In this document: positions 1 through 52,931 of the stretch, piece after piece
Layout: every line of letters begins with the position of its first letter
Position numbering within the stretch: position 1 is the first letter of the stretch
Source of the DNA: Blastocatellia bacterium
GTDB taxonomy: Bacteria; Acidobacteriota; Blastocatellia; RBC074
Length of the DNA stretch: 64,000 nt
Assembly (NCBI GenBank): GCA_031409955.1
Contig: JANNYF010000088.1
Coordinates: 82,927-146,926, forward strand
Direction: 5' to 3'
Notes under the pieces: generated by a model
What the model saw: only the letters and a program-made list of their open reading frames with translations
Database searches by the model: none
What the model was told of the DNA's origin: nothing
Position numbers and translations under genes: made by a program

Positions 1-515
1 AGGCGTATGCTGAAGGTGCCAAAGAGGCGGGACACGAGGTGAAAGTTATCGCAGTCGCAAGCCTTGAATTCCCACTGCTGCGCAGCAAAGAAGAGTTTGA
101 GCATGGCGTGCCGCCGGAAGCGATTCAGCAGGCCCAGCAAATCTTCGATTGGGCGCAGCATCTGGTGATTTTTTACCCGCTCTGGCTCGGCGCAATGCCT
201 GCGATCTTGAAAGGATTTCTGGAGCAAGTGTTTCGCCCGAAGTTTCTTTCCGGCAGCGCCGAAATGGGCAAGACCTGGCAAAAGACCTTACGGGGAAAAA
301 CCGCGCGCATCGTGGTGACAATGGGAATGCCTGCGCTCGTCTATCGTTGGTATTTCGGCGCGCATAGCCTGAAGAGCCTGGAGCGCAATATCCTCAGCTT
401 TTGTGGCATTGGCCCGATTCAAGAAAGTCTGATCGGAATGGTTGAAGCGCCGGACAATGCCAAACGAGAGAAATGGCTAGAGAAAATGCGCAGCTTCGGG
501 CGGCAGGGGAAGTGA
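1..515 (+). CDS. NAD(P)H dehydrogenase (quinone)/flavodoxin-like-fold oxidoreductase, 5'-truncated by the window edge
   Basis: The frame is open from nt 3 (AYAEGAKEAGHEVKVIAVASLEF...). The C-terminal region (WLGAMPAILKGFLEQVF..., GKTARIVVTMG) matches the flavodoxin-like NAD(P)H oxidoreductase (KefF/MdaB-type) fold. The stop is at 513-515. Confidence 0.6.
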   Translation, partial: AYAEGAKEAGHEVKVIAVASLEFPLLRSKEEFEHGVPPEAIQQAQQIFDWAQHLVIFYPLWLGAMPAILKGFLEQVFRPKFLSGSAEMGKTWQKTLRGKTARIVVTMGMPALVYRWYFGAHSLKSLERNILSFCGIGPIQESLIGMVEAPDNAKREKWLEKMRSFGRQGK

Positions 516-1848
516 AAAAACCTATCGTGGCAAGCACTGTCGGCAAACAATCCGCGTCAGACGAAGTAGCGGATGACGCGCGCGGATTGCAACCCAAACC
601 AGTTCCCAGTGGCCACTTGCGCCGTTTCTTTGCCGAGCTTGGGCCGGGCCTGATTACTGGCGCGGCGGACGATGATCCCTCCGGCATTTCAACCTATTCG
701 GTCGCGGGCGCGGCCTTTGGGTTCAATCAACTCTGGACAGCAATCTTTTCTTTTCCCTTGATGGCAGCGGTGCAATTGATGTGTGCGCGCTTGGGCATGG
801 TGACGGGCAGAGGTTTGGCGGGTGCGATTCGCCATCGCTATCCGCGTTGGGTTTTGTGGGGAGCTTGCGCGTTGTTAGTTACGGCCAACACCGTCAACAT
901 CGCAGCGGATTTAGGCGGCATGGCGGCGGCGATGGAGATGGTGACGGGTGTGCGTGCATTTGTGTGGCAACCGTTCTTTGCCGCCTTGATTGTGGTGTTG
1001 ATGATCTGGTCAAGCTATCGGCACATCGCGCGGGTTTTCAAATGGCTGACGCTGGTGTTGTTTGCTTACATCGCCGCTGCATTTCTGGCGCATCCGCCGT
1101 GGAGCGCAGTGTTGCGTGCCACGTTGATGCCGCACATGGAATGGAACGCGCAATATGTAGCGACCTTCATTGCCATTCTCGGCACTACGATTTCGCCGTA
1201 TCTATTCTTTTGGCAAGCCGCGCAGGAAGTCGAAGAAGAGCGCTCAAGGGGACGCCTCACCTTGAAGCAACGGCAAGGCGCAACCGACGCCGAGTTACAC
1301 GCCGCGCGCACCGACGTGCTTTCGGGAATGGCCTTCGCAGGCATCGTGATGTACTTCATCATCCTGACGACCGGCGCAACGCTCTACGCGACAGGGCAGC
1401 GTGATATTGAAACGGCACGCCAAGCGGCGGAAGCCTTACGCCCGCTCGCAATTTGCTGTTCACCATCGGCCTGGTCGGCACAGGAATGTTAGGCGTGCCG
1501 GTGTTGGCTGGCTCGGCAGCATACGCCATAGCCGAAGCGATGCACTGGCGCGGCTCACTCAATGATCGTCCTCGCGCGGCATCGAAGTTTTATACAGTGT
1601 TGGCAATCTCCGTCATCGCGGGACTGTCGTTGGATTACTTTGGCTTCAATGCGGTACGGATGCTGTTTTGGGCTGCGGTTGTAAACGGGGTGTTAGCGCC
1701 GCCGTTGATCGTGTTGGTCGTGTTGCTCACGAGCGATAAAAAAGTAATGGGCGCACGCGTCAATCCGCTGCTGCTGAAAGTTTTGGGCTGGCTGACTGCT
1801 GCGTTGATGACCGCCGCAACCGTGGCAATGATTCTATTGTCGCTCTGA
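473..1848 (+). pseudogene. mntH: Nramp/MntH-family divalent metal cation transporter split into two frames by a 1-nt frameshift near 1451
   Basis: The N-terminal part (GPGLITGAADDDPSGISTYSVAGAAFGFNQLW, MPH motif) is in frame 473. The C-terminal part (LFTIGLVGTGMLGVPVLAGSAAY...) continues in frame 1453, with no intervening sequence. The junction, gcaATTTgctg, looks like a lost A in an AAA run. Possible starts are ATG 473, GTG 512 or GTG 527. Confidence 0.55.
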
Positions 1849-6417: not shown

Positions 6418-6549
6418 TTAGCCGTGGATTTCAATCCACGGAAGTGGTTCGATGTTTCCGGCGTCGCGTTAGCGACGATTGAATTCAGGTGTCGCTGATG
6501 CGACACGGGAGCCTTATTTTGCGCACCGTGGATTGAAATCCACGGCTAA
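6418..6549. promoter_or_regulatory. Paired 20-bp palindrome CCGTGGATTTCAATCCACGG (two copies 84 nt apart) in the divergent promoter between the CE12/PL11 operon and gene 6600
   Basis: TTAGCCGTGGATTTCAATCCACGG at 6418-6441 and its exact reverse complement at 6526-6549. Extra small palindromes (CGTCGCGTTAGCGACG, GTGTCGCTGATGCGACAC) lie between them. Confidence 0.55.
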
Positions 6550-6599
6550 AGTCAGCCGCCGCGACGCGGCAAAGAGGCTGACCAGTTACTCAAACCTAC

Positions 6600-7577
6600 A
6601 TGAATACACACCGCATAAAACTCTGGTTGTTGTTGGTTGTCGTGATAGTCATCGGGAGCGCGACTGCTGCTATTCGTGGCGCAAATCAACTTCAACCCAA
6701 AGCCAAAGCACTCGCATTTTTGCAACGCGAAGTTCCCGTCTGGAAACAGCAAAACGGTTGCTTTTCGTGTCACAACAACGGCGATGCGGCGCGCGCTTTG
6801 TATGCCGCGATTCGCAAAGGCCATCGCGTGCCTGCCGAAGTTTTAGCCGAGACCAATGCGTGGGTCAGCGACCCAAACCGTTGGGAGCAAAACAAAGGTG
6901 ATCCAGGGTTTAGCGACCAGAAGTTGGCGAACTTACAATTCGCCGCCGCGCTGGTGGCGGCCATTGAGGCTGGGCAAATCAAAGATCAGGAACCGCTGCG
7001 CCAGGCCGCGCGAAAACTGATGAACGATCAAAGCGCGGATGGTTCGTGGCACATTGATGCGGCGGGTACAGTTGGCTCGCCTGCGACCTGGGGGACGCCG
7101 TTGGCGACGTGGATGGCGCGGCAAACGTTACGGCAATCCGATCTGCCCGAAGCCAAAGACGCTGTGCAAAAAGCCGAGCGCTGGTTGCTGCAAGCAAAGC
7201 CCAACAATGTATTGATCGCTGCCACATTGGTATTGGCTTTCGCGCGTGACTCCGGCGTCGCAGCGCGTCGCCAACACACGGAAAGTTTGTCATTGCTCCG
7301 TCGCGCACAAACACAAGATGGAGGGTGGGGGCCGTATGCGGATGCGCCACCCGAATGCTTTGATACGGCGCTGGTGCTGCTCGCTTTGGAAACTGTCCGC
7401 GCACAAACAGGAATTGCTGCAATGATTCAGCGCGGTCGCGTCTTCCTGATCGCGCAGCAAAACACCGATGGAAGCTGGCCTGCGACTACGCGGCCTTCGG
7501 GCGGCGACAGCTATGCACAAATGATGTCCACGACGGGCTGGGCGACGCTGGCGTTGTTGGAAACGGAAGGACGGTAG
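6600..7577 (+). CDS. Membrane-anchored protein with a CxxCH heme-c motif and prenyltransferase/squalene-cyclase-like (alpha/alpha toroid) repeats
   Basis: N-terminal hydrophobic anchor. CFSCH appears once. Repeats are QSADGSWH, QTQDGGWGPY and QNTDGSWP. Confidence 0.6.
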   Translation: MNTHRIKLWLLLVVVIVIGSATAAIRGANQLQPKAKALAFLQREVPVWKQQNGCFSCHNNGDAARALYAAIRKGHRVPAEVLAETNAWVSDPNRWEQNKGDPGFSDQKLANLQFAAALVAAIEAGQIKDQEPLRQAARKLMNDQSADGSWHIDAAGTVGSPATWGTPLATWMARQTLRQSDLPEAKDAVQKAERWLLQAKPNNVLIAATLVLAFARDSGVAARRQHTESLSLLRRAQTQDGGWGPYADAPPECFDTALVLLALETVRAQTGIAAMIQRGRVFLIAQQNTDGSWPATTRPSGGDSYAQMMSTTGWATLALLETEGR

Positions 7578-8129: not shown

Positions 8130-9311
8130 TCAGCGAATCTCAAAAGGTAATTTGACAGAGGACGTCTTGAGGTGTCGCTCTACGCCTGTAAATAAATCCA
8201 CTTCAAACGCCTTGCCAATATTGTTGCCTGCGAGGTCTTCCACGGTTGTCTGGATGACCAGATCATACGTGCCACGCGGCCACGCCAGGTTGGGTGTAAA
8301 GCTCCAACGTTGCTCATGGTCTTCCAGCTTCACTTGGCCTGGCACAATCTGTCCGGCTGCGGTTACAACGGTGATGAGCCGTGATGATAACGCATGATCC
8401 ATCGGTTCTGGAAATAGCAGGACGAGCGGTTCGCGCGTGCCGGAAGACAGCGCGCTTATTTGCCAGCGCTGGGGATCAGGCGGTTCGCGGTCGGGCGCGA
8501 CGACGCGGAATGATTTCTGAAATTCTACTTTGAGTGGTGCGCCATTGCCGTCTTTCCAGGCTTGGCGAATGACCAGCGTATAACTCTTTCCGGTTTCCAA
8601 GGACGGGCCGATTTCTTCCAGCGGCAACACGCCGCGCTTGATGCGACCGGGATCAATGAATACGGTCAAGCGCGTCAAGGTCGTGTCCCACAACTCCTCG
8701 TCAATTTCCAGAAACGGCAATTCGACTTGCTTGCCTTTGTCGTCGCGCAGTTGAATAAATTCGTAAATGCCACCGCGTTGCATCGGCGCAGAAAAGTGCA
8801 GATAAAACTTGAGCAGGTTTTCCGGCACGACCGCGCCGCTGGGATAGACAGCCGTGATGATTGTCGTCGGCGTGACGTCGCGCGGCGGCAACCGAAAGGT
8901 GCTGGTGATGGGCGCTGCGATCACGTTGCCAGGCAACTGCGTGGGGCGAAACTCGGCGCGATAGCCCAAGCCCGGCTCCATTGGAAACTGCGGCGCAAAG
9001 CGCAACACATTGCCTTGCACACGATACGCGCCGAGCATCGCTACGTCAGCGGTTGCCGTGTACACGGCAAACAATCGTTGCCATTGCGACGGCTGCCAGC
9101 GAACGCGTTGCAGTTGTTGCAGCGTCGCGGCATTCAAGCCGATGATTTCGACCGCGATTTTATGGGTGTTGGTTGCATCAGGCGTCCAGCGAATGGTTTG
9201 CGCTTGCGCGGTCACAACGCAAAGGAACAAAGCGACAAAGCGGCAAAGAAACCGCTGATGGCTCTTTGTCGCTTTGTCGCTTTGTTCCTTTGCGTTGAAG
9301 ATTCGCGTCAT
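8130..9311 (-). CDS. Exported hypothetical protein
   Basis: 393-aa ORF with a signal-like segment FVALFLCVVTAQA. Its start codon and first ~25 codons lie inside a tandem-repeat palindrome (9218-9294). It starts 6 nt downstream of the upstream gene's stop (stop at 9317-9319). Confidence 0.55.
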   Translation of the reverse strand: MTRIFNAKEQSDKATKSHQRFLCRFVALFLCVVTAQAQTIRWTPDATNTHKIAVEIIGLNAATLQQLQRVRWQPSQWQRLFAVYTATADVAMLGAYRVQGNVLRFAPQFPMEPGLGYRAEFRPTQLPGNVIAAPITSTFRLPPRDVTPTTIITAVYPSGAVVPENLLKFYLHFSAPMQRGGIYEFIQLRDDKGKQVELPFLEIDEELWDTTLTRLTVFIDPGRIKRGVLPLEEIGPSLETGKSYTLVIRQAWKDGNGAPLKVEFQKSFRVVAPDREPPDPQRWQISALSSGTREPLVLLFPEPMDHALSSRLITVVTAAGQIVPGQVKLEDHEQRWSFTPNLAWPRGTYDLVIQTTVEDLAGNNIGKAFEVDLFTGVERHLKTSSVKLPFEIR

Positions 9312-9316
9312 CGTTA

Positions 9317-10429
9317 TTACGGCAGCGGCAGCGTTTCGAGGTTCAGCGTGCCACCTTCTGCGCGGCGCACCACGATGGCATGTTTGCTATCGAAACGATC
9401 CAATTGATCTACGCCTGTCCACGCTTCAATGGTCTCGTAGGTCATGCCCTTTTTATCCGGCACGGGCGCGAGGATGCTTTCTGCGCCGGCAATGTTTTCG
9501 GTCGTGATCTTCATCACACCGCGACTGCTATTGGCCATCAGCAAATAATGCTTGCCGTCGCGTTGATAGACGATCATATCCAGCGGACGATTGCGGTTGC
9601 CGAGTTCCGCGATGGTTTTGCCTTGCAGCTTCGCGCCGGGTTTCAAATCGCTGATCGGGATTTGTACGAGCGGCGTGCAGGTGTACGCGGTCAACAGATG
9701 ATCGGTAGTGCCAATCTTGAAGGACGTGAAGGTGCGAACCGGCGCGCGCGTTTCAAAGCGTCCGTGTGCGCCGTGATAAATCTCCACGGTGGTTCCGCTC
9801 GCCACTGCTTTGAACGGGAAAGGAACGGCACGCAGGGTGGAAGCAAACTCTTCATTTGCCAGCCCTGCGACGAACAAACGACCATCTACAAACGCGATGT
9901 CGGTGATGGACTCAAGGCGCGGGTTGCTGGCACGATTGCCTTCGCCCATTATTTTGTCAGCGGGCGCATCGGGCAAATCCGCGCGGGAATACTTCACATT
10001 GTCGAGGGCGACGACCTCGATCTTACCGTCTGTTTTGACGCGCACCAACACGGGCATCGCATCGGCTCCGCGTCCGCGCGACACGGACAGATAGGCATTA
10101 CGCGAGACTGGATTGATCGCCAAATCCACAATCAAAATTTGATCTGCTGTGGTGCCGAGCAGCGCCGCAATTTTTTGATTGATGCCTTCGACTTTGAGCA
10201 GTGGCGTGCCTGCCGCAGCTTTCACATCACCTGTTGCGATGGCTATGATAGCGGCGGCCTTTGTGTCAGCCACAAACAGAACGCCGTCTGGGCCAAAGGC
10301 TAAGGGGCCGACTGATTTCAGTTCGAGCTTGCCTTCTGCCATACCTGCCGTCCACCGGGGGGCAGCCATTGCCGTTTGCAACACGACGCAACAAACCACG
10401 AGTGTCAGAAAAAGAGAAAACCGTTTCAT
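9317..10429 (-). CDS. Exported hypothetical protein (beta-rich)
   Basis: Signal peptide MKRFSLFLTLVVCCVVLQTAMA. No recognisable catalytic motif. First gene downstream of the receptor terminator hairpin. Confidence 0.6.
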   Translation of the reverse strand: MKRFSLFLTLVVCCVVLQTAMAAPRWTAGMAEGKLELKSVGPLAFGPDGVLFVADTKAAAIIAIATGDVKAAAGTPLLKVEGINQKIAALLGTTADQILIVDLAINPVSRNAYLSVSRGRGADAMPVLVRVKTDGKIEVVALDNVKYSRADLPDAPADKIMGEGNRASNPRLESITDIAFVDGRLFVAGLANEEFASTLRAVPFPFKAVASGTTVEIYHGAHGRFETRAPVRTFTSFKIGTTDHLLTAYTCTPLVQIPISDLKPGAKLQGKTIAELGNRNRPLDMIVYQRDGKHYLLMANSSRGVMKITTENIAGAESILAPVPDKKGMTYETIEAWTGVDQLDRFDSKHAIVVRRAEGGTLNLETLPLP

Positions 10430-10530
10430 TCAAAAACTCCTTTGGTTGAGAACTTAAAACTGGAAATGGGAATGCACGCCAGCCAAGACGCGGGGGCAGG
10501 GCAATTGGTTTCGAGGTTGATAAAAAAGTC

Positions 10531-10573
10531 GAGCCGGCTGGATGGCAACTGCGCGCTGCCATCCAGCCGGCTC
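10531..10573. terminator. Perfect 17-bp stem hairpin downstream of the receptor gene 10588-14028
   Basis: gagccggctggatggca-actgcgcgc-tgccatccagccggctc. Confidence 0.6.
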
Positions 10574-10587
10574 AATCATCTGGTCAG

Positions 10588-13500
10588 TTAGAAATTCAGC
10601 TTCAGCCCCATCACAATGCGCCGCGCGTTGGCTGCTGACGTGTAGGAACCAAACAGCGCATTGACTTGATTGTTGTTCGCGTCAAACCGCGCCGTCGTAT
10701 CTACGCCGGTGAATTGCGTGTGGTTGAAAGCGTTGTACATCTCCAGGCGATACTGCAACCGCACCCCGCCATCTTTCGAGAGATTGAAGGTCTTGAACAG
10801 CGAGATGTCCCAGTTGTTCGTGCCGGGCAAGCGGAACAGGTCTTTTGCGGCGTTGCCTCGGCCAAAATCGCCCGCCGTTGTGGGCGGAAGAACGGAACTA
10901 ACATTCAGATGACAGCCTCCCACTGCGGTCGTCTGCGCTGCCGTATTCGTGGCGGCAAAGGGGTGGGCGCAGAGCGAATTGCGCTGATCGCGCGCCAGCA
11001 CGGGATTGGCAATCAACAGAACTCGACTGTCCACGCCCGCGCCGCCGCCGCCGACCAAGTCACGCGCCGCTACCAGTGCGTAACCGATGCCCGATGGCGC
11101 TCCACTGATGAAGGATGTGACGCCAGACAATTCCCAGCCTCCAAAGATCTGGCGCGACACCGCATTGTCCCAGTATTTGCTCAGACTGGGCACACGGTAG
11201 ACGTAATTGAATACGAAATTGTGCGTGCGGTCGAAATTGAATCTGCCGTAATTCCGCACCTTGCGATCAATGAACGGATTGATGGCGTCACCGTTGCCGT
11301 TGACCAGACTCATCGCCTTCGACCAGGTGTAACTCACACCGTAGGACAGGCTGCTCGACAGACGGCGATTCAATTGCACCTGCAACGAATGGTAGTTGGA
11401 GTTGCCGCCCGTTTCGATCAACTGAATATCGGCATAGCCTTTGATCGGGCGCAGGAAGTTATCGGGCAACGGCGTCGTTCCGCCTGACACCGTCGGATCA
11501 ATACTCGACGCCAGGAACCGCGCGCCATAGGGCACAGCGTTCAGGCTGAGCCGTTGCAGCAAGTGCCGCGCCAGCGAACCGACGTACGCCACATCAAGCA
11601 CCGTGTTGTAGCCGATGTCGCGTTGCACGCCGAGGCTGAAGTTGTAGACCGCCGTCGGGGAAAATGTCGGGTCTACGGCATTGACGCCCGCCGGACTGGT
11701 GCTGAGGGGTGTTGCCAGCAAGTCTTTGATGGTCGTGAAATTGGCCGTGCGCGTAATGATGTTCGGCGGCTGCTCGCGTTGCTGCAATACCTGATCGTCA
11801 TTGAAGCGGTCGTAGAACACGCCGATACCGCCGCGAATCGAGGTCTTGCCGTCTCCAAAAACGTCGTAGGCAAAGCCGATGCGTGGTGCTACCTGAATCG
11901 GCGGTGTTTTGAAGACGCGCTCTGACACTTGCTTCATGCCTTGGAACGGCGTGCCCGTGCCATCCGCGAAGGTGCCGATCTTGACGGAGGGCGCAGTCGC
12001 CCCGGTGATCGGATTGCGGGCCAATTTGACGGCGTTCGAGCAGGGATTGACGTTGTTCGGACAATAAGGCGTCATCAGCGCTGGTTGCTTCGTGGCGTCA
12101 TAGAGCGAACGGTCGAAATATACCAACGAATCGCCTTCGCTGTAGGTTGGTTCGATGTAATAAAAGCGCACGCCCGCATCCACCGAGAACCGTTTGGCCA
12201 ACTTCCAATTGTCCTGCACAAACCATTCCACATTGCGATACCGCGCGTGACCATCGAGCTTGTTGTTCGATTCGGTGTAGGCGTTGATGGAGCCGATCAG
12301 TGCATTGGCGAACGGGTGATTGGTGTCCTGCGGATTGTTGACGTTGCGATCAAAATTGAACGTGCCGTTGAAGGCCGCTGAGCGCGCCGCGTTGCGTGTG
12401 GTGTATTCAAAATAGAAGCCGGTCTTGAGATTGTGATTGCCTTTGATCCACGACAGGTTATCCGACCAGTTCCAGATGTTATTCGTGCCAAAGAACGGGA
12501 AGCGTTGTTCGATGTTGAGTTGCGTCGGATTCGAGATGCCACCGAACGTCGCATTCGGCACGAGGCGCAGCGGGTTCGCTCCGGGGAAAAATTGCGGCAA
12601 GGTTAGCCCTAATTTGACGCGGTCGTTGCGGTCAATGCCTTCCTGATTCAGCGGCGCAACCGTTTGCAACGCGCGGTTGATGCCGAAGGTGGCTTCATTC
12701 GTCAACGTCGGCGAGAAGCTGTGAATCAAGGTGCTGACCAGACCGCGACTTTCGATCTGATATTTGATCGGGAATTGCGGCCAGACGTTCGACGCCAGCA
12801 CAAAATTGAAGTCGCCCTTGAAGGCTTCGTAATTCTGAATGCCGCGCGCATAAAAAGTCGTCTTCTGCGAAATGTTCCAGTCCATGCGCAAAATCTCTTC
12901 GCGGCGCGGTTGATCCACCTGGCTCTGGAAGACGTTATTGAAAGTATTCGCCGAGTTGCTGAAATTCGGCAGCGGGAAGATGTTGAGCAGTTTCTGCCCG
13001 TTGGCGTCAATGCGGTTGGCCGGAATGATGTTGCCGGGGAAGCAGGCCGTCGTATCGGTCAGCGTGCAGGCGCCGGTTTTGAGCGGATCGCGCACCGGAA
13101 TCAAGCGACCATTCGTGTCGAGGCTCTGCGAGAAGTTGCCTGCGCGTTCGAGCGCTGTCGGATAGGTGATCGTGCCTTGCCGCGTGGGATACAGGCGCGG
13201 CAGATATTCCTGCGACCAGAAAAAGAACAGCTTGTCGCGGTTCTTATTGAAGTTCGTGCCGGGAATCAGGACGGGGCCGCCGATAGTGCCGCCCCAGTAA
13301 TTGAACCGGTAGCGCGGTTTGGCCACGTTGCGCAGATTATTGAAAAATTCGTTGGCGTTGAATTGCTCGTGGCGTTTGAAATAAAAACCGCCGCCATGAA
13401 AATCGCGCGTGCCATTTTTGATGACCACGTTAATCGTGCCGCCGGAACTGCGTCCGTACTCAGCTTGATAATTCGTCAGCAATACTTTGACTTCGCCGAT

Positions 13501-14028
13501 GGCATCGAGACCAGGCGCAAGATACGGCCCCAATTGCGAACCAGTGTCGAGCGACGAGACGCCATCCAGCGTCAGATTGATCGTACCCGGGCGGCTGCCA
13601 TTGATGCTGACGCCGACCAGATTGTTCCAGCCCGGTGCTTCGCGGTTGGCCGTGTCAACGACGCCGGGCAGCAACTTGACCAGCCCCATATAATCGCGGC
13701 CTTTGAGCGCGATGCTTTGAATTTGTTGTTCGTCAATCAAACCCGCGCGTTCGGCGCTTTCCGTTTTCACGTAGGTTTGTTCTGCCGTCACCGTGACGGT
13801 CTGACTCACATCGCCCACTTCCAGTGCAACTTTGCCTACTGGAACGCGTTCGTTGGCGGTGACTACAATGCCTTTGCGCTCGAATCTCTTGAAGCCGCTG
13901 GCCGTCACCGTGATTGTGTATGTTCCCGGCAGTAATTGCGGAGCCACAAAGTTTCCTTCGCTGTCGGCACTTACCGTCACGATGCGCGCTGTCTCCTCAT
14001 TTGTAACTTCGACTTTGGCATTAGGCAC
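10588..14028 (-). CDS. TonB-dependent receptor-like outer-membrane protein (carboxypeptidase-regulatory-like domain + plug + barrel). It is separated from its own signal peptide by an in-frame TAA
   Basis: 1146 aa. N-terminus ...ISGTLADTQGSIVPNAKVEVTNEETARIV, C-terminal ...LKLNF. Upstream, in frame: ATG (14166, SD GGAGG) - MTQLFCRSMAQSVALCLTLVLLCGAGWAQGLTG - TAA (14065-14067). Confidence 0.8.
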   Translation of the reverse strand: MPNAKVEVTNEETARIVTVSADSEGNFVAPQLLPGTYTITVTASGFKRFERKGIVVTANERVPVGKVALEVGDVSQTVTVTAEQTYVKTESAERAGLIDEQQIQSIALKGRDYMGLVKLLPGVVDTANREAPGWNNLVGVSINGSRPGTINLTLDGVSSLDTGSQLGPYLAPGLDAIGEVKVLLTNYQAEYGRSSGGTINVVIKNGTRDFHGGGFYFKRHEQFNANEFFNNLRNVAKPRYRFNYWGGTIGGPVLIPGTNFNKNRDKLFFFWSQEYLPRLYPTRQGTITYPTALERAGNFSQSLDTNGRLIPVRDPLKTGACTLTDTTACFPGNIIPANRIDANGQKLLNIFPLPNFSNSANTFNNVFQSQVDQPRREEILRMDWNISQKTTFYARGIQNYEAFKGDFNFVLASNVWPQFPIKYQIESRGLVSTLIHSFSPTLTNEATFGINRALQTVAPLNQEGIDRNDRVKLGLTLPQFFPGANPLRLVPNATFGGISNPTQLNIEQRFPFFGTNNIWNWSDNLSWIKGNHNLKTGFYFEYTTRNAARSAAFNGTFNFDRNVNNPQDTNHPFANALIGSINAYTESNNKLDGHARYRNVEWFVQDNWKLAKRFSVDAGVRFYYIEPTYSEGDSLVYFDRSLYDATKQPALMTPYCPNNVNPCSNAVKLARNPITGATAPSVKIGTFADGTGTPFQGMKQVSERVFKTPPIQVAPRIGFAYDVFGDGKTSIRGGIGVFYDRFNDDQVLQQREQPPNIITRTANFTTIKDLLATPLSTSPAGVNAVDPTFSPTAVYNFSLGVQRDIGYNTVLDVAYVGSLARHLLQRLSLNAVPYGARFLASSIDPTVSGGTTPLPDNFLRPIKGYADIQLIETGGNSNYHSLQVQLNRRLSSSLSYGVSYTWSKAMSLVNGNGDAINPFIDRKVRNYGRFNFDRTHNFVFNYVYRVPSLSKYWDNAVSRQIFGGWELSGVTSFISGAPSGIGYALVAARDLVGGGGAGVDSRVLLIANPVLARDQRNSLCAHPFAATNTAAQTTAVGGCHLNVSSVLPPTTAGDFGRGNAAKDLFRLPGTNNWDISLFKTFNLSKDGGVRLQYRLEMYNAFNHTQFTGVDTTARFDANNNQVNALFGSYTSAANARRIVMGLKLNF

Positions 14029-14302
14029 GATGCTGCCTTGCGTATCCGCCAGAGTGCCAGAGATTTAACCGGTTAAGCCTTGCGCCCATCCCGCTCCACA
14101 GAGCAGGACAAGTGTCAGGCAAAGAGCGACCGATTGCGCCATTGACCTACAAAATAGTTGCGTCATGTTGCCTCCTGTTTAGGGTTCAGTTGATGAAAGG
14201 TAGAGCGTTAGTACCACTAAACTTTGGATGGGTCAAATCAGGCAGGGAAACTTGGAAGCAAAAAGCAAAAGTTAAAAGCGCGGCACTTATTTTTTCATGA
14301 AG

Positions 14303-14432
14303 AGGGTAGCGCAAACTGTTAGTTTGCGATGTTCGCCATATAACGCCTGCAAAGGAACCATGCCGTCGAACACCTTATTTCCATTAGGGTATCTGTCATT
14401 CAACCACGCAAACTGACAGTTTGCGCTACTCT
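14303..14432. promoter_or_regulatory. Paired near-palindromes CGCAAACTGTTAGTTTGCG (14310-14328) and CGCAAACTGACAGTTTGCG (14407-14425), ~130 nt upstream of the receptor start at 14166
   Basis: Each site is an internal 19-bp palindrome. The flanks AGAGGGTAGCG/CGCTACTCT are themselves inverted. Same core as the 16645-16751 pair. Confidence 0.6.
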
Positions 14433-14472
14433 GGCGAAGGCACTTCTGATTCCTTCTGCTCTGAGCCGACCA

Positions 14473-15258
14473 TCAAAGCGTGCGCAAATGAAATCCGCCG
14501 TCTACGTTGATGACTTCACCGGTTGAATATGGCAGATCGCCGTGTGCAATGGCGGCAACTGCGCGCCCGATGTCTTCGGGCTGTCCCCAACGGCGCAACG
14601 GCCACGCGCCCTGTGCAATCAGGTGATCGTATTTTTCCTGCACGCCCGCAGTCATATCCGTCGCAATCACACCGGGGCGGATTTCATAAACGTTGATGCC
14701 AAACTCCGCCAGACGCGCGGCAAACAACGCCGTCATCATTCCCAGTCCCGCTTTGGCGACGCAATAGTCGCCGCGATTGACCGACGCCGTGAAGGCAGAA
14801 ACGGACGAAATCGTCACGATGCGTGGCAGGCCAGACGAGCCAAAAGCATTCGTCTGAACCTGCGCGATCATTTGCCGCGCAACGATTTGCGTCAGGAAAT
14901 ACGGGCCTTTCAGGTTGATGTTGATGAGGCGATCAAACGATTCTTCGCCTGCTTCCAGAACATCAGCCCGAACATTGGGAGCCACGCCTGCATTGTTGAC
15001 CAGCAAATCAATCCGACTGTATGCCGCCAGCGTTTCACTCACGAGCCGCGCTCGATCTTCTGCCAGCGAAATATCCGCGCGCACCGTGATGCCATCGCCG
15101 CCTGCTGCGCGCACAAGTTGCAAGCAGTCGTCCGCCGCGCTTGCGTTGCCCGCATAGTTGATAACAACGGCGTGACCGAGCTTGGCCAGTTCAAGCGCAA
15201 TGCCGCGCCCGATGCCGCGTCCAGCGCCTGTGACCAATGAAATCGGGCGTTCGCTCAT
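14473..15258 (-). CDS. SDR-family oxidoreductase (KduD/FabG-like)
   Basis: [21 protein letters not shown] Rossmann motif, catalytic S...YxxxK (YCVAK), NNAG. There is a 4-nt overlap with the upstream GH88 gene. Confidence 0.8.
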
Positions 15259-16520
15259 GGTTGTGTCTCCCCCTGTGATTGTGGAGACGGCATCTCTTCC
15301 TCCGTCGGCCCATCCGCCCATTGCTTCGCCCACGCGGGCAGCGAATCTTCTGGGTACGGTGTCAGGCTTTGCGAAGTCGCTTCTTTGCTGAACGCGGTTA
15401 ATGCTTTGTCGAGCGCTTCCACGAAGAAGTATTCGCCAAACAGCACGGCTTCATGCACGCCGAGATTTTTGTGAATGTGATAGACGCCGCCGTTCAAGAT
15501 GCCTTCAAATCCGGGCATCAAATGACCGAGATATTTTTGCGACAAGGTTTGCAACGAGGTCAGTGCGAAGTCTCGATACGCCCGCGCTTTCGTGCGATCC
15601 GGCACGGCATCGGCTAAATCCAGCAGGCCGGAAGCCGCAATCGCACAGGCCGACGTGTCTACTTGCGATTTCGCCAGAGGCCCCGTTTTCGGCGCGTCAT
15701 AATCCCACGGCGTCACACCATCGGCGGGCGTGTGCTCCAAATAGAAATCCGCATTGAGCATAGCGGTTTGCAAATACTCGCCGCGCTGCGTTTGCAAATA
15801 GGAACGCGTGAAGCCGTAGAGCGACCATGCCAAACCGCGACTCCAACACGAATCGCCGCGATAGCCTTGATGCGTGGTTTGGCGCAAGCATTCGCCCGTT
15901 TCCACATCGAAAATCGCTTCGTGCGCAGTCGAACCATCGCCGCGCACAATCGTTCGCCGCGTCGTCAGGCAATGCCGATGCGCAATGTCCAGCACGTGCG
16001 CGTCGCCCGCTTTTAGCCCCGCATAAAACAGCGTCCCGACGTTCATCATAATGTCTATGAACAACGACGCCGGTTCGACGAACGAGCGCAGATATTGCCC
16101 GCGTTCCATAAATCGCATCGCCATTGTTTTGCCAGCCTGCATCAACAGCGGTTTGATATGTGCCGCCGGGCCGCCCAATTCCAACCAGCGCAGATGCGTC
16201 GAGAAAAACAAAAAGCCAAGGTCATGCACCGCGCGGTCATATTGGCGATTTTCGAGCGGCGTGGCATAGCGGATGGCGTGGTCGAGCCACTCGCTTGCGC
16301 CCGTGCGTTTTGCAAAGACAAACATCATGCCGGGATAAAAACCATCGCACCAATGCGTCCATCGTTTGCGGTCGTGGCCGAATTGCCCGTTGACCGTGTA
16401 CATCGGGTAGTAATCCGCTGGGTATTTTTTCAAAAGCGATTTCACTTGTGCCTGTGCAAAGTCAAAGGCTGTTTGCAGCGTGTGTTGCATCGCTTCACGC
16501 TCGTGCATAGAAATGGGCAT
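15255..16520 (-). CDS. Unsaturated glucuronyl/uronyl hydrolase, glycoside hydrolase family 88
   Basis: [12 protein letters not shown] start with the SD GGAGGAG. GH88-type motifs include WSRGLAW and HDLGF. ~420 aa. Confidence 0.75.
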
Positions 16521-16644: not shown

Positions 16645-16751
16645 CCGCTGTTGCGCGAACTGTTAGTTTGCGTCTTCGCTGAGGTAGGCTTGAGTTGCCA
16701 GCAAAGTGTTTGGTCACGACCGACGCAAACTAACAGTTCGCGCAACAGCGG
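16645..16751. promoter_or_regulatory. Perfect 30-bp inverted repeat (16645-16674 / 16722-16751), each arm carrying the near-palindrome CGCGAACTGTTAGTTTGCG. It lies upstream of the GH88-SDR operon
   Basis: CCGCTGTTGCGCGAACTGTTAGTTTGCGTC and its exact reverse complement, separated by 47 nt. Located 125-230 nt upstream of the GH88 start (16520). Confidence 0.6.
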
Positions 16752-25274: not shown

Positions 25275-28200
25275 TTAGAACGTAAACCGCATCATGAATT
25301 GAATCCAACGCGGCGTATTACCTTGCGCCGTCACCTTGCCAAAATTGGCGCTGGTGATGTCGGTGTTTGGGCCTTGATACGTTACGTGATTCAGCGCATT
25401 GATGAAGTCCACGCGGAACTGCATTTTCAGCCCTTCCGTGATGGCGAAGTTCCGCGCGAGGTTCATATCCACCTGGTTCATGTTCGACGTGCGTAACCAG
25501 CTCAAGACGCTGGGGAAGACACGTTTGTGGAAGCTGTTCGGTTGGAAATTCACGGGTGTCACATTTTCAAAGGTGCAAGCCACGTTGTTTCCTGAACCAC
25601 AAATGTTACCCATCGCGGTTAATACCGCTTGCGGCACTAACGAACGAATGCGAGTTTCATAGGCAGCGCGATTCGACGCCGTGTAATCACGCGCCGCACC
25701 GGGCAACAATTGCCAATTGAACCAGGCATCGGTTGTCCGTTCGTCGCGTGATTTCGTGAAGGCTCGCAGGTCATTGCCGTAATAGAACCAATTCCCCACT
25801 CCAAAGGCCGGGCCACTTTGCAGGTGATAGATCGAACTAACCTGCCAACCACCGACAACGGCATTGGCAATCTTCGAACCTGACAGGAACTTCTTGCCTT
25901 TGCCAAACGGCAGTTCATACAAAGCATTGAACATGAAGTGATAGGGACGCGAGTTGTTGCTCTCTGTCCAAAGAGGAGTTGTATCGTATTCGTTTTGGAA
26001 TCCGGTGGCCTGTTGATTCCAGGTGCGGATGAGCGAGACCGAATACATCATGCCATTGGAAAAACGCTTGTTCAGCGTCAGTTCCAAATCGTGATAACGA
26101 CTTTTACCCAAAGGCGCACGCGAATTGGTGGAGCCGTTCAGATGCCCATTAGGACGAAGCAACGAAGACCTGGCTCTGGTTGCGCCCGTGAAGAAACCAT
26201 TGCCGTTCATATCCTGATACAACAACGGATTCGAGGTCTGCAACGAAGCGAAATTCGTAATGCGGAACGGATTCGCCACGTTTCCATTTAAGTAATTCGC
26301 AATCGTGTTATTGCGATATTGTCCTGAAGCCCAATACTGCTCTGGCAACGGATCAAGCCGTTGACCGATGGAAATACGATCTGAAGACGAACCGAGATAG
26401 GCGAACTCTAAGACCATGCTCTTCGACAATTCGCGCTGCACGCTGAAGCGCCACCGTTGTTGCCGCGCATGCTTCCAATCGCTCGGAATATAAGCGATGC
26501 CGCGCCCCACACCCGCCATCACGCCCAGTGCATTGCCGACGGGTTGCAGAAAGCGTTGACCATTGGCTTGAACCGGGAATGGGTCGGAGAAGATGGTCGT
26601 GCAGGCAGACGCGCTGGCGCGACAAGCCGCAGAGGTGAGATTGGAAGAAGTGAACGTCAGCCCGTTATCATTGGATACATTTGTCGCTGTGGTGCGGCTG
26701 TAGCCCAATTGATTCAGGTCGTTATTCAAAACGTTATTGGTATCGAAGAAAATTCCGTACCCGCCACGCACCACTGTTTTATCGTTGATTGAGTAAACCG
26801 CGCCGATACGTGGCAACCACAGGTTTTCACTCAGATGCGAACCATTTTCGTTAAGGTAGAGTGAACCACCTTTGACGGCAAACTGACTCGCGGGCAGTTC
26901 CGGCAAAGCGATGGCGGCATACGCCGCCTGAGCACCAGCCTCGATGGGCAAGGAGGCAGTCCGATCTAAGCCAACAATGGCGCGGTTATAGCGTTCTTTG
27001 AAGCCGCCTTCGCGCTCCATGCGCAAGCCCAGATTGACCGTGAATTTCGACGTCACGCGCCAGTCATCCTGCACATAAAATCCATAGTACGGATTGGTCA
27101 GATAATAACTGTCATTTTTAGTAACGCTGACCGAACCGCCGGGCGCACCCAGCAGGAAAGAAGCCCATTCCAGGCCGAGCAACCCAACCCCGTTGGTCGT
27201 TGTGGTGTTTGTCTGGCGCAGATACGTGTTGCGTGGTTGAATCACGCCGGAGGTGTTGCCGGGGTTATTAAATTGACGGTAATGTTGCCGCAAATCATAA
27301 CCAAAGCGCGTGCTGTGATTCTTGAAAATCTTCGTCAATTCGCCGCGCACGGTGCCAATGCTGTAACGGGTTGGCGTCGAGAACGTGCGACTGAAATCTG
27401 AGTTCGAATTATCACTGAAATCAAGCACTGGCAAATGCTTGGCATCGCCTGCGAAGGCCGTTAAATAGCTCGGCAGTCCGACCGAATCCGGCCCAAAGCT
27501 TTGTTGCACTGCGTTCTGGGTGTTGCCATCACGATAGCGATTCCAGGCGATTGAATTGTTCAGAATCGTGGTGGAATTGATCGTGTAAACGTGATCTACC
27601 ACGACGGCGATATTGTTACGGTTCAGACCGTTTTGATGTAAGCCACGCGCGGTTTCATACGTCCAGTCGGCGCGGTCTTCGAGAAAGTTTTGATAGCTCC
27701 ATTTCCCGAACACGCGATGCTTCTGCGAGGCCACCCAGTCAATGCGATTGCCGTAGTTTTCAAAATCCCAATTGAAGGGCGTCGCCGCGGCCAGATAGTT
27801 GTTCAGACCATCCGTTCCGACTACGCCCGGCACATTGTTGGGTTGCGGGATCAGTTTCAAATATGCCGCCGCCATCGGGTTGATGATCGGCACTTGATTG
27901 TTGACGAAGGGATCGCGGACAACGCAGGTATTGCCTGCGCCGCACACGCCACCGGTCACGTTGCGTGCTGTCCGTGGATCGTAAATCTGATAGCGCACCG
28001 GATCAATCGCGAGTAGTTCGGAGAAATCACCGGCCCGCTGTTTGACCGTCGGCACCGTGAAGCGAACCGCTAACGGCTCTTCGGTCTTGACCTCTTTCAG
28101 CCCGTTGTAGCTGAAGAAAAAGAAGAGCCGATCCTTACCGTTGTACAACCACGGCACGCGCACCGGCCCGCCTACAACGCCCGCATAGTTGTTCGAGCGG

Positions 28201-29108
28201 CCTGTTTGTTGGCGTTCCGTGGCGCGCAAGCGATCTGCTGTCGCCTGATTGGTCGCGCCATTGATGCCTCCCCAATACGAAGCATTGAGTGTGGTCGGCG
28301 TCGCGTTCCAGCGTTGTTGCCAGTGTTGCCAAGTCAATGAGCCGTGATAGGCATTGGTTCCACTCTTAGTCACCACGCTGATGCTCGCGCCGCTGCTGTG
28401 GCCTTTGGAAGCGTCAAACGGCGAAGTCTCAATCTTGATCTCGGAAACCGTATCAGCATACGGCAACGCGCCAACACGGCGCGAGGGTCCCGCATTCGGC
28501 ACACCGTCCATTGAGAATTCATTGCCGCCGACACTGCCTGCCGTCCCGATGGCGGAGGCTCCGACGTTCGAGTGTGGACCCAGGTAGTTGGCGTCAGCCG
28601 TCCATTGAATGCCAGGCACGGTACGCGCCAGGATGAGTGCGCTGTTATTCAGCACAGGCAAATCCATGATCTGTTTATTGGTCAAGGTCGTTGAGCCGCT
28701 GGCCGAAGTTGTTTCCAGCAAGGGCGCATCCGCCGTGACGTTCACGGATTCACTCGCCGCGCCGATTTCCAACGTCAGGTCGGCTTCAGCGCGAGTATTG
28801 ATGGTTAGGGCAAAGCCAGTCCGCACGGTCTTCTTAAAGCCGTTGGCAGTGGCGGTGATGGTGTAGGTTCCGGCTAACTGATAGGCCGCCTCATAGTACC
28901 CATTCGAATCGGTGACGAGTTGGGTTGTGCTGTTCGTTTCGGTGTTGGTGACAACAATCGTAACGCCTGCGACGACTGCGCCCGTGGCATCCTTCACGGT
29001 GCCTTGAATCGTACTGCGGGTTTCTTGTGCTACGCCGGAGCCGCCCAGCAACAGAATTAACCCTAAACTAATTAGGCTTAGCTGCAACCAGCGAAATTTG
29101 AAAGTAGG
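25275..29108 (-). CDS. TonB-dependent receptor-like OMP with carboxypeptidase-regulatory-like N-domain
   Basis: Start MPTFKFRWLQLSLISLGLILLLGGSGVAQE followed by TIQGTVKDATGAVVAGVTIVVTN. 1277 aa. C-terminal ...FMMRFTF. Confidence 0.85.
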   Translation of the reverse strand, partial: PTFKFRWLQLSLISLGLILLLGGSGVAQETRSTIQGTVKDATGAVVAGVTIVVTNTETNSTTQLVTDSNGYYEAAYQLAGTYTITATANGFKKTVRTGFALTINTRAEADLTLEIGAASESVNVTADAPLLETTSASGSTTLTNKQIMDLPVLNNSALILARTVPGIQWTADANYLGPHSNVGASAIGTAGSVGGNEFSMDGVPNAGPSRRVGALPYADTVSEIKIETSPFDASKGHSSGASISVVTKSGTNAYHGSLTWQHWQQRWNATPTTLNASYWGGINGATNQATADRLRATERQQTGRSNNYAGVVGGPVRVPWLYNGKDRLFFFFSYNGLKEVKTEEPLAVRFTVPTVKQRAGDFSELLAIDPVRYQIYDPRTARNVTGGVCGAGNTCVVRDPFVNNQVPIINPMAAAYLKLIPQPNNVPGVVGTDGLNNYLAAATPFNWDFENYGNRIDWVASQKHRVFGKWSYQNFLEDRADWTYETARGLHQNGLNRNNIAVVVDHVYTINSTTILNNSIAWNRYRDGNTQNAVQQSFGPDSVGLPSYLTAFAGDAKHLPVLDFSDNSNSDFSRTFSTPTRYSIGTVRGELTKIFKNHSTRFGYDLRQHYRQFNNPGNTSGVIQPRNTYLRQTNTTTTNGVGLLGLEWASFLLGAPGGSVSVTKNDSYYLTNPYYGFYVQDDWRVTSKFTVNLGLRMEREGGFKERYNRAIVGLDRTASLPIEAGAQAAYAAIALPELPASQFAVKGGSLYLNENGSHLSENLWLPRIGAVYSINDKTVVRGGYGIFFDTNNVLNNDLNQLGYSRTTATNVSNDNGLTFTSSNLTSAACRASASACTTIFSDPFPVQANGQRFLQPVGNALGVMAGVGRGIAYIPSDWKHARQQRWRFSVQRELSKSMVLEFAYLGSSSDRISIGQRLDPLPEQYWASGQYRNNTIANYLNGNVANPFRITNFASLQTSNPLLYQDMNGNGFFTGATRARSSLLRPNGHLNGSTNSRAPLGKSRYHDLELTLNKRFSNGMMYSVSLIRTWNQQATGFQNEYDTTPLWTESNNSRPYHFMFNALYELPFGKGKKFLSGSKIANAVVGGWQVSSIYHLQSGPAFGVGNWFYYGNDLRAFTKSRDERTTDAWFNWQLLPGAARDYTASNRAAYETRIRSLVPQAVLTAMGNICGSGNNVACTFENVTPVNFQPNSFHKRVFPSVLSWLRTSNMNQVDMNLARNFAITEGLKMQFRVDFINALNHVTYQGPNTDITSANFGKVTAQGNTPRWIQFMMRFTF

Positions 29109-29285
29109 CATGATGGGTCCTCCAAAATGGTGGGGTAATAGATAGATTGCAACGACAAGCCTCAATATGTCTTGTCAAAAGCCAAGCACGTGCGTTGACT
29201 TCTACAACCTTGCATTAAAAGGCAATTCCCGACCTTGAGCCGGCTACTTAGGCAGGCTTTGTTATTTAGGTTTATTGCCTTTGGG

Positions 29286-29473: not shown

Positions 29474-30676
29474 TCAAGCCACTGTTGGAGCGCCAAAATG
29501 CTTTTGCAGTACCAGCGCAATTGTGCCGCGCAACCGTGGTTGGCTGGCGGGATCAGTCGGAACAATGCGTGGGGAGGCGTATGTAAAGGAGCGCTCCTTG
29601 ATAATTTGTTCAATGATTGGGCCAACCTGCGCCCAGGCACGCGTTACTTCGCCGACAATCACAATCACGTCCGGTGCCAGTCCTGTGACCAGCAATGCAA
29701 GCCCGACACCAATGTAATGCGCCATTTGTTGTAACGCCTCTATCGCTTTGGGTGCGCCCTGTTCCGCCAACCGCAAGACATCATCAAAGGTTGGGGCAGG
29801 CCTCGCGTCATTAGGCTTGCCATTGCGTTGTGGGGCAGTGGCCTGCGCATAAAAATGAACCGCCGCAGAGTTCGACGCATACATCTCCCAACAGCCATGA
29901 TTCCCGCATTTACATTGTGTCCCACCCTCAACAATGGTGACGTGTCCGAACTCGCCTGCTGCGCCTGAACTGCCGCGCACCAACTGTCCATTGACCATGA
30001 TGCCTGCGCCAATTCCTTCTGAAACCGTCACCGCCACTAAATTGCCGATGGCGTGATGCCCAAACCAGACTTCCGCCAGCGCACAGGCATTGGCAGCATT
30101 TTCCAATTCCACTGACAACCCGGTTGCCTGTTCGAGCGGAGTGATTAAATCTATATCACGCCAGCCCAGGTTGGGTGCAAACACCAATTTCTGGGTCGCC
30201 AAATCCACGCGCCCGGGCAAGCTCACCCCAATTCCTTCGTAAGAAATCTCAGGATGCGCCTTCATTAAATTGCTCAGGCGCATGCATAAAGTGGCGATAA
30301 ATTGCTCGGGGTCCTTGGCGGTTGGTAGCGATTCCTGCACCAAAAAGTGAGCGTTTAGATCAGCCACGCCCCAAGTCGTTTGGGTCGGGCGGATGGCCAC
30401 ACCAATGATCCCAATGCGCTCTTTATTCAGGTGTAGAAACCGGGGACGCCGCCCACGCGGTACATGCCCGGTAGCCCCTTCAGTAACCCATCTTTCCTTG
30501 ATTAGCTGTTCGGCGATCACCGAAACCGTACTACGTTGCAAGCGAGAATGTCGGGCCAAATCAGCGCGCGAAATGGGTTGATGTTGGCGAATCAAATTGA
30601 GCATGACACGGCGATTGATGTCGCGTGCCGTCTCACTGGTCGCTACCTGAAAATTGGTCAGATCAATCTTACGCAT
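29474..30676 (-). CDS. ROK-family transcriptional regulator (NagC/XylR-type)
   Basis: N-terminal wHTH (RADLARHSRLQRSTVSVIAEQL). ROK sugar-kinase-like body with the Zn motif CKCGNHGCWE. Confidence 0.85.
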   Translation of the reverse strand: MRKIDLTNFQVATSETARDINRRVMLNLIRQHQPISRADLARHSRLQRSTVSVIAEQLIKERWVTEGATGHVPRGRRPRFLHLNKERIGIIGVAIRPTQTTWGVADLNAHFLVQESLPTAKDPEQFIATLCMRLSNLMKAHPEISYEGIGVSLPGRVDLATQKLVFAPNLGWRDIDLITPLEQATGLSVELENAANACALAEVWFGHHAIGNLVAVTVSEGIGAGIMVNGQLVRGSSGAAGEFGHVTIVEGGTQCKCGNHGCWEMYASNSAAVHFYAQATAPQRNGKPNDARPAPTFDDVLRLAEQGAPKAIEALQQMAHYIGVGLALLVTGLAPDVIVIVGEVTRAWAQVGPIIEQIIKERSFTYASPRIVPTDPASQPRLRGTIALVLQKHFGAPTVA

Positions 30677-37600: not shown

Positions 37601-38179
37601 TGCCGTCCATCGCATAACCGACAATGTGTGTCGGCTCGAAGGGGCGATCCAGGCGCTGCGAACCCGTGTAGGATACGCCGGTGGTCAACCCAATCAACTT
37701 GAATGGGTCGCCGTGCGCGATGGGCAATTCTGAAATCCGCCGTTGGTCAATCACCTGCCCCATCGAAGCGGTCGTCGTTTCGAGCGGCGAGCCTTCGGCG
37801 GTGACAGTAATAGAATCCTGTGCGCCGCCGACTTCCAGCGCGAGGTCGAGGTCAACGGTGCCGTTGACTTGCAACAAGACACCCTCGCGCACCAAGCGCT
37901 TGAACCCATTGGCTTCGACCGTAATCGAATAGGTTCCCGGCAATAACAATGGGGCCCGATAAACGCCTGATTCATTCGTCGTTAACGAGACAGTCGTCCC
38001 CATAGTCGTGCTGGTGATTTTGACGGTTGCATTGGGCACGACAGCCTGACCGGCATCGAAGATTTTGCCCGTAATCGTCCCGCGCGATTCCTGTGCGGAC
38101 GCGGGTAGCGCAAATGCTGCCGCCAATAAAAGCGCCGACAAAACGCTTCGCAATAAGTTGTCGAGTTTAATTTTCATAA
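34620..38179 (-). CDS. TonB-dependent receptor-like OMP with carboxypeptidase-regulatory-like N-domain
   Basis: Start [30 protein letters not shown] with the SD GGAG. Then [21 protein letters not shown]. ~1186 aa. Confidence 0.85.
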
Positions 38180-38297
38180 CTTCTCCTAAAGAATTCAGAC
38201 CGCGCAAGCGTTGTGCTTGCGAATTAGCCATCGGCAATGGCACGCACTGCCTTTGGAGCGATGCGTTGCCAAAGGGTTTCCCCCTCGCCAATCTTTT

Positions 38298-41825: not shown

Positions 41826-42040
41826 ATAGCTCCTTAAATTCTGGAAAGGCTGGCAAAGCAATCACGCTCCGCAGCGCTGGCGCTCGCTAATCCGAAGCGC
41901 AACTCGGCAAGGGAATCCGCAAAAGAAAAAAGGTTATTCAAATGTCCAGCAAAGCGTAATTGATTCGTTGATGAAATTTAGATCGCGCGCAGTTTACAAG
42001 CAATCGTCCTATCCGTAAAATTCATAATTCCGAAAGCTTC

Positions 42041-42076: not shown

Positions 42077-42994
42077 ATGGATTTCCACCAACTCAAAGTC
42101 TTTTATTCAGCCGTCAGCACCGGCAGTTTCACGCAAGCGAGCCAGGCGCTGAACCTCTCGCAATCCACCATCAGCCAGCACATCAAACAATTGGAAAACG
42201 AATTGGGCTGCCACCTGTTTCGCCGAGTGGGGCGCGGCGTGCATTTGACCGAAGCGGGGCATTTGCTGCGCGATCATTGCGAGAAGATTTTTCAGGATGT
42301 CAAAAACGCCGAGATGGCGATCAAAGAACTGAATGGGTTGCAGCGCGGGCGCATTCGCTTTGGCTCCGGCGCAACCACGCTAATCTATCAATTGCCAGCG
42401 GTCATCGAAGCCTTCAGCGCGGAGTTTCCCAACATTGAGTTGGTGATTTTTTCTGACACGACCGAAGCAATTATCCGCGAGATCAAAGCCCAGCGACTTG
42501 ACCTCGGCTTAGTCATGAAACCGCCCGCCGAAAACGATTTGCAGTTCACGCCGCTGTGCAACGAAGAGTTGATGATCGCGCTTTCCAGCAAACATCCATT
42601 AGCCAGCAAACGCGCCCTGACGATCCCGGATTTGCAATCGTTGCGCTTCATTCTGTACGAAAAGAAAACCGCGATGCGCAGGCTGATTGATGACTTCTTC
42701 AATGAACTCGGCGTCACGCCACAAATTGCGATGGTGATGGAAAACATCGAAGCGATTAAAAGCCTGGTTGGCAGTGGACTTGGTGCGTCTGTCTTACCTG
42801 CTCACGCGGTTGGAGAAGACGCCGTGGATAAAAAGGTACGCATGCTCCGCGTGCAAAAACGCACCTTGCGTCGTCAACTCGGTTTGATTTCCTTGAAGTC
42901 GGTCTTGCCGCCCAATGCCGTCCATCAATTTTCGCAATTGGTCGTCAGCCAACTCGGAGCGAAACACCGTATCGCCCGTCACGACCCGAGTTGA
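42077..42994 (+). CDS. LysR-family transcriptional regulator
   Basis: HTH QASQALNLSQSTISQHIKQLE plus a LysR substrate-binding domain. It is divergent from the receptor operon. A T-N11-A box lies upstream. Confidence 0.9.
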   Translation: MDFHQLKVFYSAVSTGSFTQASQALNLSQSTISQHIKQLENELGCHLFRRVGRGVHLTEAGHLLRDHCEKIFQDVKNAEMAIKELNGLQRGRIRFGSGATTLIYQLPAVIEAFSAEFPNIELVIFSDTTEAIIREIKAQRLDLGLVMKPPAENDLQFTPLCNEELMIALSSKHPLASKRALTIPDLQSLRFILYEKKTAMRRLIDDFFNELGVTPQIAMVMENIEAIKSLVGSGLGASVLPAHAVGEDAVDKKVRMLRVQKRTLRRQLGLISLKSVLPPNAVHQFSQLVVSQLGAKHRIARHDPS

Positions 42995-49255: not shown

Positions 49256-49481
49256 GGGAAACACCTCTTTCCGATTATGATTCTGTCTGGAGCGGGAACC
49301 CGCCGATTGTCTGTCTGTTGACGGCGCTCAGTTGAGCATAGCCATTTCGGCAAGTCAAATATTTTTCTACTGAGCCAAAAGCTTTTTTTACTGAGTAGAA
49401 ATTGACCTTGCCTTTTGGATTCTGTGCCGCTAGGGTAGGCTGCCGCATACGCGCTACCCCAGAACTTGCAAAAGTGAAACC

Positions 49482-52929: not shown

Positions 52930-52931
52930 CT

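Follow-up and report, generated by a model that had tools for sequence, protein, structure and literature searches.

An outer-membrane barrel requires Sec export and BAM insertion to reach its place, and FhuA and BtuB are known as phage receptors as well. Among the described systems, the closest to the gene reported here are the acidobacterial TonB-dependent receptor (TBDR)-like proteins that combine a CarboxypepD_reg domain (PF13620) with a PF25183 barrel, and their domain order and length (~1190 aa) are equal to those of this gene. Among these acidobacterial CarboxypepD_reg-type receptors, only the present copy carries a stop at Gln34 and thus encodes no exportable product. Like the receptors of polysaccharide-utilisation systems, the gene sits among glycan-degrading enzymes. 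It also shares with the young single-nonsense pseudogenes of bacteria one transition in a conserved codon, an intact remainder, the presence of paralogues and another disrupted gene nearby. Nothing sets this case apart from them, and that the stop falls five residues past the predicted cleavage site is a conspicuous coincidence. The loss-of-function alleles of BtuB in Salmonella (PMC13196588) concern the same protein class and likewise involve loss-of-function point mutation; phage selection is known there, whereas for the present receptor such a link is a possibility. Generally, the inactivation of the receptor is real but ordinary: of the five paralogous receptor genes, this one has very probably become a nonsense pseudogene, or a loss-of-function allele, only very recently.

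The window (the whole 64,000-nt stretch of DNA from a Blastocatellia bacterium that was analysed) carries the broken receptor gene on its minus strand, and the features of the gene and its surroundings are collected in Table 1. An earlier note on this DNA had described an in-frame TAA behind a leader with a Shine-Dalgarno sequence before ATG 14166, and both the stop and the ribosome-binding site were read directly at the places it gave. The block around the Shine-Dalgarno sequence, CAGGAGGCAACATGA, has the same letters in the relative L013. The note had also let ATG 14166 open the signal peptide. This start is kept, because L013 also begins M(M)QLFCRSMA, but the peptide quoted for it (MAQSVALC...) begins at the second Met (14142), while ATG 14166 opens MTQLFCRS....

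The leader ORF is MTQLFCRSMAQSVALCLTLVLLCGAGWAQGLTG, which contains 33 codons (the 28-residue signal peptide and QGLTG) and has Arg7 in a charged n-region, a hydrophobic core and a G-W-A motif. In the orthologues, the leaders end with small residues at -3/-1 (AWA, ANA, ALA, AFG), and QGLTGQISG follows. From the AXA rule and these small residues, cleavage is predicted after G-W-A (Ala28), which would make the stop mature residue 6. The sequence context at the stop is ACCGGT-TAA-ATCTCT, with A as the +4 base, and the wild-type peptide over the site is AQGLTG-Q-ISGTLADTQGSIVPNAK. After the TAA the frame resumes as ISGTLADTQGSIVPNAKVEV... and is open to the TAA at 10590-10588. It was said before to continue for 1146 aa as a full receptor; the receptor is indeed complete, but the open frame has 1158 codons and the figure of 1146 aa counts from GTG 14028. 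The 1146-aa product from this GTG is leaderless, automatic gene callers begin there, and upstream of it there is only a weak AAGG. A chance pattern is excluded, as a frame of 1158 codons with a 577-bit barrel lies right behind the stop and after a conserved leader, and as the orthologues all have Gln at the site.

Table 1. Coordinates of the broken receptor gene, its domains, its paralogues and the palindromes upstream of it (positions in the window).
Feature	Position	Strand or place	Evidence and remarks
Perfect palindrome CGCAAACTG-A-CAGTTTGCG, operator-like	14407-14425	upstream of receptor	pattern search and direct reading
Palindrome CGCAAACT-GTT-AGTTTGCG	14310-14328	upstream of receptor	pattern search and direct reading
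Shine-Dalgarno AGGAGG	14171-14176	-	direct reading; 4-nt spacer (CAAC) before ATG
Start codon ATG	14166-14164	-	direct reading
Predicted 28-residue signal peptide MTQLFCRSMAQSVALCLTLVLLCGAGWA, with start	14083-14166	-	reading and orthologue leaders
QGLTG, first five predicted mature residues, within leader ORF	14068-14082	-	motif common to ~115 orthologues
Premature TAA at Gln34	14065-14067	-	coding-strand CAA>TAA; plus-strand G>A at 14067
Rest of receptor frame, 1158 open codons, ends ...MGLKLNF	10591-14064	-	direct reading
GTG, first in-frame start past stop	14026-14028	-	12 codons downstream of TAA
CarboxypepD_reg, PF13620	13822-14064	-	61.4 bits, E = 1.1e-16; residues 1-81 past stop
TonB-box-like QTVTVTA	13783-13803	-	direct reading; residues 88-94 past stop
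Plug-like region, PF07715	13438-13737	-	18.8 bits, below 23.9 cutoff; E = 0.0024
Beta-barrel, PF25183 (OMP_b-brl_4)	10615-13425	-	577 bits, E = 8.6e-173, profile 1-837 of 838
Own terminator codon TAA of receptor	10588-10590	-	direct reading
Intrinsic-terminator-like hairpin, 20-bp stem, 13 G-C pairs, then T-run	10530-10574	-	directly 3' of receptor gene
Receptor paralogues, same architecture	25275-29165, 34620-38291, 38298-41861, 45161-49264	-	profile search

The terminator-like hairpin behind the receptor gene is strong, and the gene is therefore probably monocistronic. Upstream, a TTGACC-N17-TACTAA block is conserved with L013; since a strict sigma-70 scan upstream of the receptor gene called no promoter, this block is regarded as a candidate promoter only.

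For the frame past the stop, the plug-like match spans positions 12-105 of the 107 in the PF07715 profile (residues 110-209) and lies between the N-terminal domain and the barrel, as expected. The heptapeptide QTVTVTA resembles the TonB box consensus, D/E-T-x-x-V-x-A, and is a candidate for this box, and the C-terminal ...KLNF, an aromatic beta-signal feature of the TBDR superfamily, is present. In the search with PF00593 (TonB_dep_Rec_b-barrel), this copy fails at E<=0.001 and two paralogues pass. TBDRs require a signal peptide on the barrel, and here TAA 14067-14065 parts the leader from the barrel. The PDB search gave no sequence match at E<=0.01, and the sole match in the NCBIfam search was a 26-bit fragment to PqqU, so that no informative model was found there. 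NCBI labels the orthologues as “TonB-dependent receptor” or “carboxypeptidase regulatory-like domain-containing protein”. To the intact orthologues in Blastocatellia MAGs, the amino-acid identity is 90-95%; for the open frame past the stop it amounts to 92-95%, with no indels.

We searched 5.8 billion proteins with the receptor and got 4,857 matches at E<=1e-50, the best 120 of which were examined. It turned out that ~115 of these best 120 are full length (about 1,140-1,220 aa; <=90% identity) with the leader covered, and that QGLTG-Q-ISG occurs in every one of them. The alignment to the orthologues is gapless at this point, so exactly one residue has given way to the stop. The same had been concluded earlier from four intact paralogues, and these were found too, all on the minus strand and with intact leaders. 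We also read the codon at the site from 58 motif matches among the genome loci listed, two of which (L044 and L058) fall by chance in sequence of another kind. The genuinely orthologous sites of these loci contain CAA (25) or CAG (25) and never a stop, while Ser/Thr codons appear at the site only in distant (~60% identity) Bryobacter/Solibacter-type homologues.

Among the matches listed, the nearest relatives have GGT-CAA (L013, L040 and L002) or GGC-CAA (L001). For instance, L013 and L040 read GGT-CAA-ATC where the window reads GGT-TAA-ATC. P0127, a protein cluster member that is the closest intact relative (95% identical), also has Gln at the site. Because CAA is found in the nearest relatives and CAA or CAG at the remaining orthologous loci, the lesion, as read from these codons, is one C>T transition that converts CAA (Gln34) into TAA. 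CAA was one of the ancestral codons that had been named as candidates. The earlier note had also considered that orthologues might share the stop; a stop at the orthologous position was found in 0 of ~115 proteins and at 0 true orthologous sites in the listed loci. A degenerate scan of the metagenome collection for Q-G-L/F-T-G-(TAA/TAG)-I-S-G did not find one either: it gave 7 matches, all of them non-coding or out-of-frame chance matches, and none had a leader upstream or a receptor downstream.

The rest of the gene looks like that of an intact receptor. None of the Shine-Dalgarno sequence, start codon, leader and terminator is damaged, the first three being common to the window and L013, and the window row of the alignment has no indels beyond those common to all sequences. 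The dN/dS between the window and eight relatives is 0.075-0.094, and that of intact orthologue pairs is 0.062-0.092. Changes private to the window lineage include 139 synonymous and 16 nonsynonymous ones; the same ratio in intact orthologues is 119:19, 169:15, 176:10 and 195:16. With no other decay, the stop is therefore either very young or biologically ineffective. From the absence of secondary decay one can conclude only that the lesion arose recently or that the population still segregates for the allele; it is no proof of a dead gene. A fresh nonsense pseudogene, one of three options in the earlier note, agrees well with these results, namely the ancestral CAA, the single C>T and a remainder without decay.

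In the proposed mechanism, one C>T would turn the Gln34 codon CAA, the predicted mature residue 6, into TAA, and translation from the intact Shine-Dalgarno sequence and ATG would then stop after 33 residues (signal peptide and QGLTG). Re-initiation at GTG 14028 would yield a leaderless cytoplasmic fragment with no entry to the Sec pathway. Since a barrel depends on Sec and BAM, the leaderless receptor would be functionally lost, trace readthrough aside. Both this loss of export and function and the youth of the lesion are what we infer from the DNA. The loss is probably buffered, because four paralogues accompany the gene in a pectin/hemicellulose-utilisation region. For annotation, the gene would be better labeled as a pseudogene (CAA>TAA, codon 34) than as the 1146-aa “carboxypeptidase regulatory-like” protein from GTG 14028 that is found in the public collection. 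Besides, a metabolic reconstruction of this Blastocatellia genome should count one of the five receptors of the region as non-functional.

Another gene in the window is broken in a different way. The Nramp/MntH-like gene at 473-1848 (plus strand) is frameshifted, with the junction at ~1448-1456: ORF 473-1492 corresponds to positions 1-250 of Pfam Nramp, and ORF 1453-1848, in another frame, to positions 257-355. The protein reads ...EALRPLA up to the junction and then LLFTIGLVGTGMLGVPVLAGSAAYA in the other frame. About six profile positions are absent, from which an out-of-frame deletion of ~13 nt at the junction is deduced. The Logan assembly of run SRR20217191 contains the same split, with products of 339 aa and 117 aa. 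Two lesions in about 46 genes fit the ordinary pseudogene background of a free-living bacterium.

The options of a sequencing error and of readthrough, which the earlier note had set beside the pseudogene, fared less well. If the TAA were a base-call or consensus error, the organism would truly have CAA and an intact gene. Such an error would likewise leave the rest of the gene pristine, and the source looks metagenome-type, with all relatives being MAGs. We regard this as having a slim chance, as the same stop is found in a separately built assembly. In the Logan assembly of SRR20217191, whose contigs were reached through neighbours of the receptor gene (PL11 lyase, FlhF, SDR and Nramp), contig L087 matches window 12880-15875 (2,996 bp) at 100% identity, TAA included. 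It reads ...ACCGGTTAAATCTCTGG... at the site, and its gene call begins at the equivalent of GTG 14028. Contig L085 is also 100% identical to the window, and L086 differs at 2/4,510 positions; from these mismatches it follows that neither consensus, deposited or Logan, was copied from the other. P0125, from an NCBI-derived collection (a record with a 154,274-bp contig), is identical to the truncated 1146-aa product. With the TAA present in Logan as well, and with a truncated product as the gene call deposited at NCBI, a sequencing or assembly error is unlikely. The two assemblies may share reads, in which case the TAA could come from a systematic error in the reads, or an intact allele could be present as a minority; against this, the substitution lies outside a homopolymer and is not a typical systematic error, and the structurally different Nramp lesion (deletion/frameshift) is likewise reproduced. 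Among metagenome contigs, the exact 38-mer over the site (Y at the variable base) had no match. Contigs encoding exactly the truncated product of 1146 aa, the leader ORF of 33 aa or the downstream gene of 370 aa were looked for and not found either. A functional leaky or programmed readthrough, in which tRNA-Gln misreads UAA, restores the wild-type residue and keeps a low receptor level, is barely credible. It is known that tRNA-Gln is a near-cognate tRNA misreading UAA/UAG in E. coli and yeast (PMC5289835, citing Nilsson & Ryden-Aulin 2003 and Blanchet 2014). Therefore trace readthrough would regenerate the native protein exactly, though only at background level. The +4 base at this stop is A, and the strongest context would be U. 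Among the stop codons of bacteria, UAA is the one read through most rarely (PMC5289835). Programmed readthrough sites usually have a leaky UGA/UAG with stimulatory context or RNA structure, whereas here the stop is UAA-A. The RNA fold at the stop gave z = +0.42 against shuffled controls, with no stable hairpin, and a recoding RNA structure was rejected on this result. A programmed event should moreover be conserved, and this stop, absent from the orthologues and from the metagenome scan, is private to a single lineage. In the window, TAA is a normal terminator and the commonest genuine stop, closing 19/46 greedy ORFs including all five receptor genes. A tRNA gene search of the window found none, so there is no suppressor tRNA within it, and reassignment of TAA or an alternative code was rejected because TAA terminates genes here. 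We found no other gene in the window split by a nonsense codon in the same frame; the same-frame neighbours (FlhG|FliA, FlgA|FlgH and the tandem receptors) are separate genes.

Adaptive loss would give a reason for the pseudogene and not an alternative mechanism: the TAA allele may have become dominant via phage or bacteriocin resistance, with four paralogues covering uptake. We consider it doubtful. BtuB, a TBDR, is a phage receptor in Salmonella, and its loss-of-function mutations are selected under phage pressure (PMC13196588). In addition, two assemblies from an environmental sample both have TAA as their consensus, and the four paralogues lie inside the same 40 kb. However, nothing related to phages or defence was noticed around the receptor gene, a neutral or mildly deleterious hitch-hiking mutation fits the data equally well, and the Nramp lesion, a further pseudogene with no relation to the receptor, points to ordinary background decay. 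The dominance of the TAA allele could come from neutral drift buffered by paralogues or from selection to lose a site on which a phage or bacteriocin docks, for which the window gives no direct sign. It is very improbable that the allele is a selected “dimmer”, in which nearly all of a phage- or bacteriocin-exploited receptor would be gone, rare misreading by tRNA-Gln would keep trace uptake, and a one-step T>C change would allow reversal. If population data were to show that the allele swept, it would be a small natural case of an uncultured acidobacterium from soil losing a receptor.

The receptor gene belongs to a glycan-utilisation region (3598-49264), in which the five CarboxypepD_reg-type receptor genes are interleaved with enzymes and regulators. 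The enzymes include PL11 rhamnogalacturonan lyase, GH88, CE15-like glucuronyl esterase, KduD-like SDR, several GDSL esterases, GH67, GH95, PL22-like lyase and an enolase-superfamily dehydratase, and the regulators are of the ROK, LysR and sugar-binding types. In this acidobacterium, the region is the analogue of a polysaccharide-utilisation locus for pectin/rhamnogalacturonan and glucuronoxylan side chains.

The two palindromes that had been reported upstream of the receptor are present (Table 1), although the inverted-repeat search did not report either of them. The 19-nt palindrome, CGCAAACT-N3-AGTTTGCG, has four copies in the window: the two upstream of the receptor and a pair at 16654-16672 and 16724-16742, which is located upstream of the GH88-SDR genes. 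A pattern search with <=2 mismatches gave 5 matches, and 0.42 were expected. The relative L013 has similar sites, ACAAACTGAAGTTTGT, upstream of its intact receptor orthologue. The palindrome is probably an operator of a local sugar-acid/pectin regulon, for which the candidate regulators are ROK (29474-30676), LysR (42077-42994) and a protein with IclR-HTH and periplasmic-binding domains (49482-50600).

Downstream of the receptor, positions 8130-10429 (minus strand) encode a 370-aa protein without Pfam match, followed by a 393-aa Big_5 Ig-like protein. The position and length of the 370-aa protein are kept in L013 (8429-9541). These two proteins may be surface glycan-binding partners of the receptor; the strong terminator lies between the receptor gene and their genes.

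Elsewhere in the window, a match to the Rfam Acido-Lenti-1 sRNA (RF01687) was found at 6526-6571 (plus strand; 37.1 bits against a gathering score of 37). It is located immediately upstream of ORF 6600-7577, which encodes a repeat protein similar to prenyltransferase/squalene-hopene-cyclase. A flagellar cluster with apparently intact genes extends over 50767-63629 (plus strand), including FlhA, FlhF, FlhG-like ParA ATPase, FliA sigma factor, FliM, FliN-like, rod proteins, FlgA, FlgH and FlgI. What is more, several GTDB-representative MAGs with Blastocatellia-type orthologues of the receptor (L002, L005, L006, L007 and others) bear the title “uncultured Heliomicrobium sp.” or “Heliobacteriaceae”, and one bears “Phycisphaerales”, which looks like mislabelled taxonomy.
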